DNA of 64,000 nucleotides from Promethearchaeota archaeon (GTDB taxonomy: Archaea; Asgardarchaeota; Lokiarchaeia; Sigyniarchaeales; SOKP01), in assembly GCA_019058445.1 (NCBI GenBank), contig JAHPZA010000009.1:352001-416000 (forward strand), in the 5' to 3' direction. Positions 58,314 through 63,674 of the stretch are shown here, in pieces. The position numbers and the translations under genes are program-made. Position 1 is the first letter of the stretch; each line of letters starts with the position of its first letter. The notes beneath the pieces were generated by a model. The model saw only the letters and a list, made by a program, of their open reading frames with translations, was not told where the DNA came from and searched no databases.

Positions 58314-58398
58314 GCGGGAATTGCCAAGTTTGGTCAAAGGCGCTGGACTCAGAATCCAGTCACGAAGGTGTTCGGGAGTTCAAATCTCCCTTCCCGCA
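58314..58398 (+). tRNA. tRNA-Leu(CAG)
   Basis: Acceptor stem GCGGGAA/TTCCCGC+A, anticodon arm CTGGA-CTCAGAA-TCCAG, long variable arm, T arm GGGAG-TTCAAAT-CTCCC; CCA not encoded. Confidence 0.95.
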
Positions 58399-61768: not shown

Positions 61769-61877
61769 TACTTAAACCTTTCAATTATTTTTTTTAAATT
61801 TATATTATGACGATAATTATATAATATCTTTTTTATAGTTAAATTTTTTATAGTCCAATTCCTATTCTATTATAATT

Positions 61878-61946
61878 ATGAAAATTATGAAAATAATTCC
61901 TATTGGTATTATCATTACTAGTATTATTATTGGAATTATTATATAA
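61878..61946 (+). CDS. Putative Ile-rich leader peptide of cimA (22 aa)
   Basis: MKIMKIIPIGIIITSIIIGIII*, 13 of 22 codons Ile; about 25 nt downstream of TATA-like TTTTATAG and 117 nt upstream of cimA. Confidence 0.75.
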   Translation: MKIMKIIPIGIIITSIIIGIII

Positions 61947-62063
61947 TTTCATAAAAGAAATGGAATTTTAAACTCTTCTTACCTTTTCTTTTATCTTTTC
62001 TAGGGGTTTAAGATTTCATCTTTGATAATATAAAATGATAAAAATCTGAAAGGAGGAAAAGCA
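61947..62063 (+). promoter_or_regulatory. Putative attenuator structure in the cimA leader
   Basis: Stem of about 18 bp with G-U pairs (61960-61977/62002-62019) enclosing a U/C tract that is also complementary to the SD region GGAGGAAAAG. Confidence 0.55.
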
Positions 62064-63674
62064 ATGGCAAAAAATAATAAATTATACATATATGATGCAA
62101 CCCTTAGAGAAGGAGCTCAGAAAACAGGAATAAGTTACTCAATCGAAGATAAGATTCGTATAATAGAGAGATTAATTAATGATTTACATATTCCTATGAT
62201 TGAGGTTGGCTGGCCAGGATCAAATCCCAAGGATATAGCGCTCTACAAAAAGATTCCAACTCTCGATACTAACTCTAATGGTACCAAGATATATGCTTTT
62301 GGAGCTACTAGACGTAAAAATATCCAGGCACAAGACGATCCAAATCTTAGAGCCTTGCTTGCTGTTGGAATAAAAAGGGCTACAATAGTTGGAAAGAGTT
62401 GGGATTTGCATGTTGAAACAGCTTTAGAAACGAATTTGGAAGAAAATCTTAATATGATTGAAGATACTATCATGTACTTAAATAAAAATGGAATTGAGGT
62501 GGTATATGATGCGGAGCACTTTTTTGATGGATATAAAAGCAATAGGCAATATGCCCTCGAAACAATATCATGTGCTTCCAATGCTGGTGCGTCATGGATA
62601 GTATTATGTGATACAAATGGTGGCCTTTTACCGCATGAACTCGGTCCTATTTTTGAAGACGTAAAAGATTATTTAGGTAATGATATTCCTTTAGGAATTC
62701 ATGCTCACAATGACTCTGGAGTAGCGAATGCCATTGCTTTGGAAGCCTATCAACATGGCGCCAGCATGATCCAAGGAACAATGAATGGATTTGGTGAGAG
62801 ATGCGGAAATACAGACTTAACAACAATTCTTCCCGTTTTAAAATTAAAAATGGGGGTAAATTGTATTTCTGATGAAGCTTTAAAAAATCTTACCGAAGTT
62901 TCCCACTATATTTATGAAATGGCCAATTTGCCTGGCAAAGATGATCAACCTTTTGTTGGAAGATATGCTTTTTCTCATAAAGGAGGTATTCATGTTTCAG
63001 CAATGAGAAAGGATGTCAGAACATATGAGCATGTAAATCCAGAGTTAGTTGGAAATTCTCGAAATATAAAAGTTTCAGAGTTGGCCGGAAAAAGTTCGAT
63101 ACTTCATATGGCCAATAAATTTGACATTCCTCTTTCTGAGACAAATCCAAAAGTTTCGGCAATACTTCAAGAAATAAAGAATAAAGAAAATCAAGGTTAT
63201 TCTTTTGAGGGTGCTGAAGGTTCATTAGAAATTATAATGAGAAGTATGGATATGAACATTCAAGATCCCAATTATTACAGAAACAAATTCTTTCAATTAG
63301 AAGGTTTTCGAGTTCTTACAGAAATGTATAAGGAGGATTTAATATCTGAAGCTACTATTAAAGTGAGAGTAGGAAATGAAATGTTTCATACAGCTGCTGA
63401 TGGAAATGGCCCAGTAAATGCCCTTGATAACGCACTGAAAAAAGCCTTGGTCTATTTTTATCCAAGTATTAAGGAAATTGATTTATCCGATTTTAAAGTA
63501 AGAATAATAAACCAGGAAGGAACAGCATCGAAAGTTAGGGTATTAGCTGAGACTCACGATGATGAGGGGAGTTGGGGAACAATTGGAGCTCATGAAAATA
63601 TTATAGTAGCGTCTTGGGATGCTTTAGTGGATTCATATATATTTAAATTGCTTAAAGATAAATCAAATTGGTAA
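62064..63674 (+). CDS. cimA: Citramalate synthase
   Basis: YDATLREGAQ, GWPGSNPKD, DAEHFFDGYK, HAHND, GFGERCGN, HKGGIH and GNGPVNALD motifs (bacterial-type CimA clade of the LeuA family). Confidence 0.88.
   Translation: MAKNNKLYIYDATLREGAQKTGISYSIEDKIRIIERLINDLHIPMIEVGWPGSNPKDIALYKKIPTLDTNSNGTKIYAFGATRRKNIQAQDDPNLRALLAVGIKRATIVGKSWDLHVETALETNLEENLNMIEDTIMYLNKNGIEVVYDAEHFFDGYKSNRQYALETISCASNAGASWIVLCDTNGGLLPHELGPIFEDVKDYLGNDIPLGIHAHNDSGVANAIALEAYQHGASMIQGTMNGFGERCGNTDLTTILPVLKLKMGVNCISDEALKNLTEVSHYIYEMANLPGKDDQPFVGRYAFSHKGGIHVSAMRKDVRTYEHVNPELVGNSRNIKVSELAGKSSILHMANKFDIPLSETNPKVSAILQEIKNKENQGYSFEGAEGSLEIIMRSMDMNIQDPNYYRNKFFQLEGFRVLTEMYKEDLISEATIKVRVGNEMFHTAADGNGPVNALDNALKKALVYFYPSIKEIDLSDFKVRIINQEGTASKVRVLAETHDDEGSWGTIGAHENIIVASWDALVDSYIFKLLKDKSNW

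Follow-up and report, generated by a model that had tools for sequence, protein, structure and literature searches.

A candidate isoleucine-responsive leader peptide and ribosome-dependent RNA switch upstream of cimA in a Promethearchaeota archaeon

The window analysed here comprises 64,000 nucleotides (nt) of the forward strand of contig JAHPZA010000009.1 of a Promethearchaeota archaeon (G000:C9:352001-416000; host genome 4.6 Mb, 31% G+C, 92.6% complete); near its end lies cimA, which is preceded by a short leader containing an isoleucine-rich upstream open reading frame (uORF), three conserved RNA helices (P1, A and B) and a hairpin loop with several U4 tracts. The leader is interpreted as a ribosome-read isoleucine gauge for cimA, that is, a leader-peptide attenuator working with archaeal-type termination; the probability of this reading is put at about 0.5. 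The more specific proposal, that an Asgard archaeon would sense isoleucine by means of a translating ribosome that hides or uncovers a U-tract terminator recognised by aCPSF1/FttA, a factor of the CPSF73 type, is offered tentatively, as somewhat less probable than its negation.

Leaders were collected via cimA orthologues from related genomes, species-representative genomes and metagenome contigs; the final set consisted of 49 non-redundant leaders, with cimA at least 72% identical in all, and represented one Promethearchaeota (Lokiarchaeia-type) family. Common to all 49 were the Ile-rich uORF, a UUCAU box past its stop, the stem and the pyrimidine-rich loop; the uORF peptides mostly started with MK..IIP and ended with IIGII(I), and the shared stem was GAAAUUUUAAAC.../...GUUUAAAAUUUC. 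The uORF and the gene that it precedes are placed as follows.

61878–61946, + strand: leader uORF MKIMKIIPIGIIITSIIIGIII, 22 codons, 13 of them Ile, stop codon at 61944–61946; found in every leader with cimA at least 72% identical.
62064–63674, + strand: cimA, citramalate synthase (536 aa); TIGR00977 equivalog, 671.9 bits (cut-off 450).

The initial annotation had placed an Ile-rich leader peptide before cimA, and this was borne out: 13 of the 22 residues are Ile in the window, and a uORF of this kind, probably translated, is present throughout the set. Ile accounted for 51% of the uORF residues (42 peptides) vs 10% in the proteome; its share of Ile, Leu, Val, Phe and Met taken together was 0.76 in the uORFs and 0.31 in the proteome, the codons of Leu and Phe being equally AT-rich. 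The length of the uORF (16–23 aa) changed by whole codons only, and the conserved AUGAA box remained in frame with the conserved GGR-AUU-AUU-stop across insertions and deletions. By sequence, the uORF is a short leader ORF enriched in the codons of the regulatory amino acid, as is expected of an attenuator.

Conserved helices enclose the uORF and follow it.

61875–61892, + strand: 5' strand of P1 in the start region of the uORF, where a 9-nt duplication places UUAUGAAA twice in tandem; pairs with the post-stop box.
61947–61954, + strand: 3' strand of P1, UUUCAUAA box immediately past the uORF stop; scored in the anchored-window tally.
61892–61900, + strand: 5' arm of helix A, AAUAAUUCC, codons Ile-Ile-Pro; pairs with the 3' arm.
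61932–61940, + strand: 3' arm of helix A, GGAAUUAUU, codons Gly-Ile-Ile; pairs with the 5' arm.
61960–61977, + strand: 5' arm of stem B; 18 pairs in the window, with compensatory changes.
62002–62019, + strand: 3' arm of stem B; UCUUU at 62019–62023 can extend the stem with AAAGA at 61954–61958, within the purine box X described below.

Direct reading confirmed the two proposed pairings of the uORF with itself, i.e. ATAATTCC (61893–61900) with GGAATTAT (61932–61939), and TTATGAAA (61885–61892) with TTTCATAA (61947–61954); the 5' strand of the latter has an identical copy at 61876–61883. The stem of about 18 base pairs (bp) described earlier at 61960–61977/62002–62019 was found with 18 pairs, and all four that are not Watson-Crick are G-U on the + strand. 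The + strand folded more stably relative to shuffles (z = −2.55) than the minus strand (z = −1.38); the stem region alone gave −17 kcal/mol (z = −4.1).

In P1, the (UU)AUGAAA start region pairs with UUUCAU(AA) past the stop; its eight pairs were 92% canonical, vs 36–55% when slid, and compensatory changes were seen at position −3 (U-A / C-G / A-U) and at +3 (A-U / U-A). In the clade of the window ATTATGAAA is tandemly duplicated (61875–61883 and 61884–61892), which gives two in-frame uORF AUGs, each capable of P1. The nine pairs of helix A were retained in 41–49 of the 49 leaders, one position occurring as U-A, U-G or C-G. Its Gly codon was GGA or GGG in 46 of 46 cases and never GGU, a codon that occurs 20 times at other sites of these uORFs and makes up 29% of the Gly codons of the proteome; the third position of its Pro codon, outside the helix, was free. 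Since the third position is constrained in the Gly codon and free in the Pro codon, conservation of both residues is explained by RNA pairing. Once the 5' arm of helix A is covered, the 3' arm can pair locally with AUAAUUUC (61943–61950); constrained folding with a ribosome stalled upstream gave 6–7.6 expected bp for this hairpin.

Stem B was present with 14–18 pairs in all 48 testable leaders, and compensatory changes converted AAAC/GUUU to AACC/GGUU in L015, L016 and L018, and U-A to C-G in L179 and L198. Covariation across homologous leaders had been named as the check on this stem, with its absence as grounds for refutation; the pairing was conserved and covaried, P1 and stem B together being 90% paired in the 49 leaders vs 59–63% at a slide of one column, with 23 double-change cells vs 6.4 in shuffles (a count that 0 of 500 shuffles reached; MAFFT alignment). 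Helices A and P1 were tallied on anchored windows, MAFFT misplacing the 3' arm of helix A and some AUGs. Among the non-Watson-Crick cells of the helices 87 were G.U vs 7 A.C; the paired entity is therefore RNA of the + strand and not an inverted repeat in DNA.

The pairing that would act as a switch joins a purine box just past the stop codon to the loop of stem B.

61951–61960, + strand: purine box X, AUAAAAGAAA, 5–14 nt past the last base of the stop; within the footprint of a terminating ribosome.
61978–62001, + strand: polypyrimidine loop with three U4 tracts (61984–61987, 61989–61992 and 61996–61999); candidate terminator signal of the aCPSF1/FttA type.

It was found by folding the nascent RNA up to but not including the 3' arm of stem B; X is the exact reverse complement of UUUCUUUUAU in the loop (Y, 61985–61994). 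The order of the segments is X, 5' arm of B, Y, 3' arm of B; X:Y crosses stem B and is for that reason mutually exclusive with the 18-bp stem. The mutually exclusive pairings postulated at the outset exist in this form, as X:Y vs stem B, and the folding with a constrained ribosome that had been suggested as a check showed that the position of the ribosome changes nascent pairing by way of X:Y. Before emergence of the 3' arm, X:Y amounted to 7.3 expected pairs without a ribosome, to 9.1–9.3 with a ribosome stalled on the Ile codons (the 3' arm of helix A then folding onto AUAAUUUC), and to 0.3 with the ribosomal A site on the stop codon; in silico, a ribosome at the stop and a stalled one thus select different structures. 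Over 37 leaders the unpaired probability of the U4 tracts was 0.57–0.60 when the ribosome was absent or stalled vs 0.75 when it was at the stop (up in 30 leaders, down in 2).

X:Y was stronger than with composition-matched shuffled loops in 12 of 44 leaders (2 expected), and 6 of the 19 different X boxes paired better with the loop of their own leader than with at least 90% of foreign loops. Reciprocal change was observed between the close relatives L183 (ACAGAAA/UUUCUGU) and L199 (UCAGAAA/UUUCUGA); divergent X boxes with matching loops were found in L005 (AUAAAGAAAAA/UUUUUCUUUAU) and in L015, where GAGAAUUUU pairs with GAGAUUCUC and the pairing contains G·U. From these comparisons X:Y appears to covary in about a third of the lineages. 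In the L181 group the partner of the 5' arm of stem B is instead the 3' end of the uORF, which repeats the 3' arm in degenerate form; such pairing was stronger than in shuffles in 10 of 48 leaders.

The particular alternative pairing proposed earlier, in which AATTCC of the uORF would switch between two GGAATT sites, did not hold. The second site (61962) is present only in the 5 leaders with cimA at least 85% identical and belongs to a 5-nt insertion of these five closest leaders, and its pairing with AATTCC reached 0.0–0.1 expected bp in every ribosome-constrained fold.

The loop of the window is U-rich as described (61978–62001: 16 U, 6 C, 2 A, 0 G). Over 48 leaders the loops, 24–43 nt long, were 60% U and 21% C vs 48% pyrimidine in the background; a U4 tract was present in 46 of the 48 loops and two or more in 37, a density found in 8.7% of background 32-nt windows and in 22% of gene 3' flanks. 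In the 20 nt past the stem, any U4 tract was found in 9 of 48 leaders, and two in none. The earlier statement that the U-rich tract is placed unlike that of a bacterial GC-hairpin/U-run terminator is in agreement with these counts (loop, 46 of 48; past the stem, 9 of 48); the intrinsic terminator of classical attenuators, a hairpin and directly then a U run, is not what the 48 leaders present.

Work in Methanococcus maripaludis (PMC8716108) found that the KH domains of aCPSF1 bound most strongly, and that termination was highest, where at least two U4 tracts were present; a Lokiarchaeal version of the factor complements there. The host genome encodes an orthologue (G000:C9:658929-660809; TIGR03675, 875 bits, cut-off 580), and both points support the archaeal termination background on which the initial annotation drew. 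The loop of the window contains two or more U4 tracts within the ca. 30 nt that would lie upstream of a termination site; the U4 tracts stand at +28 to +53 nt (medians) from the stop, the stem core beginning at +12. Genome-wide, a T run of at least 7 was found within 60 nt of the gene end in 28% of cases vs 5% upstream, and hairpins were not enriched before the gene-end T runs of the host genome (z = −0.18 vs −0.11 in controls); the terminators of the host therefore resemble ordinary archaeal oligo-U signals. Stem B was also considered as a generic terminator hairpin and found unsupported: U runs mostly do not follow it, and hairpins are not enriched at gene-end T runs.

The ends of the leader are marked by the following elements.

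61840–61853, + strand: promoter element like the B recognition element (BRE) and TATA box, TAAATTTTTTATAG; ends ca. 25 nt 5' of the uORF AUG.
62020–62051, + strand: A-rich spacer, little conserved; 52% A over 48 leaders, length and sequence variable.
62052–62056, + strand: Shine-Dalgarno (SD) sequence of cimA, GGAGG, by direct reading; accessibility independent of the position of the ribosome in the uORF.

Anchoring of 42 leaders on the uORF AUG revealed an A-rich segment at −38 to −34 and TTT(T/A)AA at −33 to −27, i.e. a BRE/TATA-like block at −38 to −26; no SD was found before the uORF. The spacing of archaeal promoters relative to the transcript start would place the latter near the uORF AUG. 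Because of the BRE/TATA-like block and of the missing SD, the uORF most likely stands at the extreme 5' end of a near-leaderless mRNA (5' untranslated region 0–5 nt). The TATA-like TTTTTTATAG is duplicated in the clade of the window (61829–61838 and 61844–61853).

The proposed course of events is as follows. Transcription would start at or just 5' of the uORF AUG. With ample Ile-tRNA, the leading ribosome would be at the stop codon while the polymerase transcribes the loop; expressome dimensions are such that a closely followed polymerase would be in the loop when the ribosome reaches the stop. A ribosome in this position would cover X, the U tracts would emerge naked, and the polymerase, on losing its ribosome, would terminate at or after the U tracts with assistance of aCPSF1/FttA; stem B would then close, tie up the 3' half of X (AAAGA with UCUUU) and leave the U tracts single-stranded. 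With scarce Ile-tRNA, the ribosome would stall on upstream Ile codons and free X would pair with the emerging U tracts or, in some lineages, the 3' end of the uORF would hold the 5' arm of stem B in place of X:Y; the signal being masked, the polymerase would reach cimA, whose SD would be open in an A-rich stretch.

Several points weigh against this attenuator. After emergence of the 3' arm, X:Y gives way to stem B whatever the position of the ribosome; since the stem wins at equilibrium, any switch must be kinetic and limited to the moment of loop transcription. In about half of the lineages (L181, L006 and L158 groups) X pairs equally well with foreign or shuffled loops, and the switch is therefore not uniform. 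Because X:Y also forms without a ribosome, an untranslated leader would, according to the folds, read through. Masking does not need stem B, and the role of the stem as a latch is a guess. The loop of the window contains only U4 tracts, while gene ends often have longer T runs.

A further point of this kind is metabolic. By its match to TIGR00977, CimA would open the citramalate pathway to isoleucine as its first enzyme; no ketol-acid reductoisomerase (ilvC, TIGR00465) was found in the host genome (92.6% complete) or in the genus mates G001–G009, two of which are 98–99% complete, and the link of CimA to isoleucine and the expected sign of regulation are therefore not secure. Eight of the nine genus mates carry cimA, with the leader in all checkable ones. 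Nor did the members searched in genera g4, g5, g6 and g10, which include genomes having both leader and cimA, yield an ilvC. Genes present in the host are LeuC-like (3), LeuB-like (1), IlvD-like (5) and AHAS-like (7); a weak IlvC-like match beside an AHAS-like gene proved to be a D-2-hydroxyacid dehydrogenase. The direction of control given above is expected by analogy, and an isoleucine-gauged CimA in genomes without detectable ketol-acid reductoisomerase is a metabolic puzzle.

The distribution of the element was followed with a covariance model of the leader, which matched 25 of the 151 genomes of the order, once in each and always in family f1; every placed match was directly upstream of cimA (6 newly fetched loci were placed by tblastn, the others by position relative to earlier cimA matches). 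The cimA orthologues of other families, ca. 50% identical, were found without this leader, one genus excepted. In this genus (g21 of family f2; L029:1270-1500 and L030; cimA ca. 49% identical) an unrelated Ile-rich uORF of 36 codons ends with LIIIIISIILNLIIC and is followed, 8 nt past its stop, by a 9-bp stem ACUCUUUGC/GCAAAGGGU enclosing a 26-nt loop with two U5 tracts; its architecture is that of the family f1 leader, its sequence different.

An unlikely alternative, though the strongest of those considered, is attenuation in the bacterial style, in which stem B, the A-tract of X and a U-rich flank would make up a hairpin terminator, the antiterminator being X:Y or the pairing of the uORF 3' end with the 5' arm of stem B, and the loop being U-rich only for the sake of X. 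It draws on the same switch, as the order of X, the two arms and Y makes X:Y and stem B exclusive and as the uORF 3' end GGGAUUAUUUAAUUUC is similar to the 3' arm of the stem, with the better-than-shuffled pairing in 10 of 48 leaders given above; the base of the stem extends in many leaders (AAGAAA with UUUCUU past the 3' arm), and the L006 group has a T5 run directly past the stem. Against it, the stem is AU-rich, T runs at gene ends of the host are not preceded by hairpins, and the entire loop of 24–43 nt is pyrimidine-rich (81%), far beyond the 8–10 nt pairing with X; together with these, the scarcity of U runs past the stem makes the bacterial version disfavoured.

Translational control of cimA, either by occlusion of its SD by the U-rich loop or uORF RNA or by termination-reinitiation or shunting across stem B, is less probable still. 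Occlusion had been proposed in the initial annotation on the basis of complementarity between loop and SD. The complementarity itself (CUUUUCU/GGAAAAG) is present in the window, and duplexes of the pyrimidine loop with the purine-rich ribosome-binding site (RBS) average about −8 kcal/mol; over 48 leaders, however, they were no better than with shuffled loops (mean −8.27 vs −8.32 kcal/mol; 4 of 48 at p<0.05), and the complementarity is compositional. The occlusion switch fell with it: the unpaired probability of the RBS (−14 to +3) was 0.49 without a ribosome, 0.49 with a stalled one and 0.45 with one at the stop, a decrease in the last state being seen in 5 of 39 leaders, and in the window loop:RBS forms at most 2 expected bp. 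A uORF stop ca. 12 nt before a stable stem does resemble shunt configurations, but the spacer between stem and SD differs in length and sequence among the leaders, and cimA carries a strong SD of its own. In the clade of L184, L209, L202 and L152 the loop contains CUUUUUUACCAU, an exact complement (10–12 nt) of the cimA RBS UUGGUGAAAAAA, for which reason a translational component may be present there; a shorter motif, UUACC, recurs in many other loops.

A functional hydrophobic micropeptide as the product of the uORF, or an RNA that binds a protein or stabilises the transcript, with Ile richness incidental to an AT-rich genome and no sensing, is improbable. Length and hydrophobicity would suffice for a membrane helix, IIP...IIGII is conserved, and in a genus without detectable ilvC the Ile-biosynthetic logic is not self-evident. 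Incidental richness is at variance with the excess of Ile over other hydrophobic residues despite the AT-rich codons of Leu and Phe, and the conserved Pro and Gly codons are accounted for by RNA pairing, the third position of Gly included. Outside IIP...IIGII sequence and length drift while the Ile content is kept; the element is tied solely to cimA; and the distant cimA of another family is preceded by its own, unrelated Ile-rich uORF and U-rich-loop hairpin. Finally, a DNA operator for a transcription factor, e.g. of the Lrp type, was rejected on the G.U vs A.C asymmetry as very improbable: the arms are AT-rich quasi-palindromes downstream of a promoter, and Lrp-family control is frequent for archaeal amino-acid genes, but the mismatches are strand-specific, the compensatory changes preserve pairing and not sequence, and the element lies 3' of a uORF that is presumably translated.

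As to the surroundings, an RDD/zinc-ribbon gene runs divergently from the cimA leader, and the ORF downstream of cimA begins after 300 nt and is without a Pfam match. No Rfam 15 family reached its gathering score in the leader, the sole match in the window being a tRNA-Leu at 58314–58398. The gene ileS is present once and in full length (G000:C10:172988-175546, L232), without an Ile-rich leader upstream; ribosomal protein L15e is also encoded in the host genome and, together with aCPSF1, marks it as that of an Asgard (Lokiarchaeia-type) archaeon. Searches of the host genome for further copies of the leader (nhmmer and regular expressions) gave one significant match, the only other nhmmer match having E = 6.1. 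A crude scan of the genome for small ORFs rich in a single amino acid returned the cimA uORF, its minus-strand mirror and one false positive. The last, an Ile-rich small ORF MIIIIRISRIQLIFIVIRDCPI (G000:C8:72374-72443; L218:576-644), lies within a minus-strand coding region. The mirror ORF MIIPIGIIFIIFIIIIE (61862–61915) points towards the divergently transcribed RDD gene; rather than being a second leader, it most likely arises incidentally from the palindrome of helix A and the symmetry of AUU and AAU.

Leader-peptide attenuation is a textbook bacterial mechanism, which needs coupled transcription and translation and hairpin terminators. No report of it in archaea was found in the searchable literature, it is absent from reviews on coupling and termination in archaea, and no regulated (conditional) U-tract terminator of the present kind was found in that literature. 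If true, the proposed gauge would be the first amino-acid-responsive transcription attenuation in Archaea, and its terminator a conditional one with the signal inside a hairpin loop, coupling translation to eukaryote-like 3'-end machinery. The cimA leader would be a compact natural test bed for functional coupling of ribosome and RNA polymerase in archaea; it could show how aCPSF1/FttA selects its sites and whether, in the closest lineage to eukaryotes, termination by a factor can be gated by RNA structure.

With the enterobacterial attenuators (ilvL of ilvGMEDA, ivbL of ilvBN, trpL) the cimA leader shares a short uORF rich in codons of the presumably linked amino acid, a stop placed such that a terminating ribosome would cover one strand of an alternative helix, exclusive RNA pairings and, as proposed, a decision during transcription of the leader. 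It differs in its host, an archaeon having no Rho and no known hairpin-dependent termination; in an AU-rich stem with U tracts in the loop rather than after the stem; in X:Y, which crosses the stem in place of the 1:2/2:3/3:4 sharing of strands; in an apparently leaderless uORF; and in the predicted read-through of an untranslated leader (vs superattenuation of the trp type). Judged from sequence, its wiring differs from that of the bacterial attenuators in that U4 tracts inside the stem loop stand opposite a complementary purine box.

In the tna operon of E. coli (TnaC) a ribosome held at the leader stop blocks Rho and thereby causes read-through. The proposed system is similar in that factor-dependent termination would take place just past the leader ORF and a ribosome at the stop would decide on access of the factor; in contrast to tna, a ribosome at the stop of the cimA leader is predicted to expose the site of the factor, and codon starvation would be sensed instead of arrest by nascent peptide and ligand.

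The leaderless short ORFs with Cys codon runs of mycobacteria (Cys 'ribulon', bioRxiv 10.1101/834739) likewise are sensory first cistrons, and pausing on a codon run of one amino acid remodels the downstream RNA. The stalled ribosome there frees the RBS of the next gene, a translational effect; in the cimA folds a stalled ribosome released no RBS-sequestering duplex and RBS accessibility was unchanged, and the structure that changes holds a terminator-like U tract.

The archaeal U-tract terminators of aCPSF1/FttA (PMC8716108, PMC11616081), for which an FttA-Spt4/5 pre-termination complex has been described (PMC11616081), also have two or more U4 tracts within ca. 30 nt, and the orthologous factor is present in the host. 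The candidate signal of cimA stands 28–53 nt past a stop codon, as T runs do past ordinary genes of the host; unlike these terminators, it belongs to a 5' leader, where it occupies a conserved hairpin loop opposite a complementary purine box.

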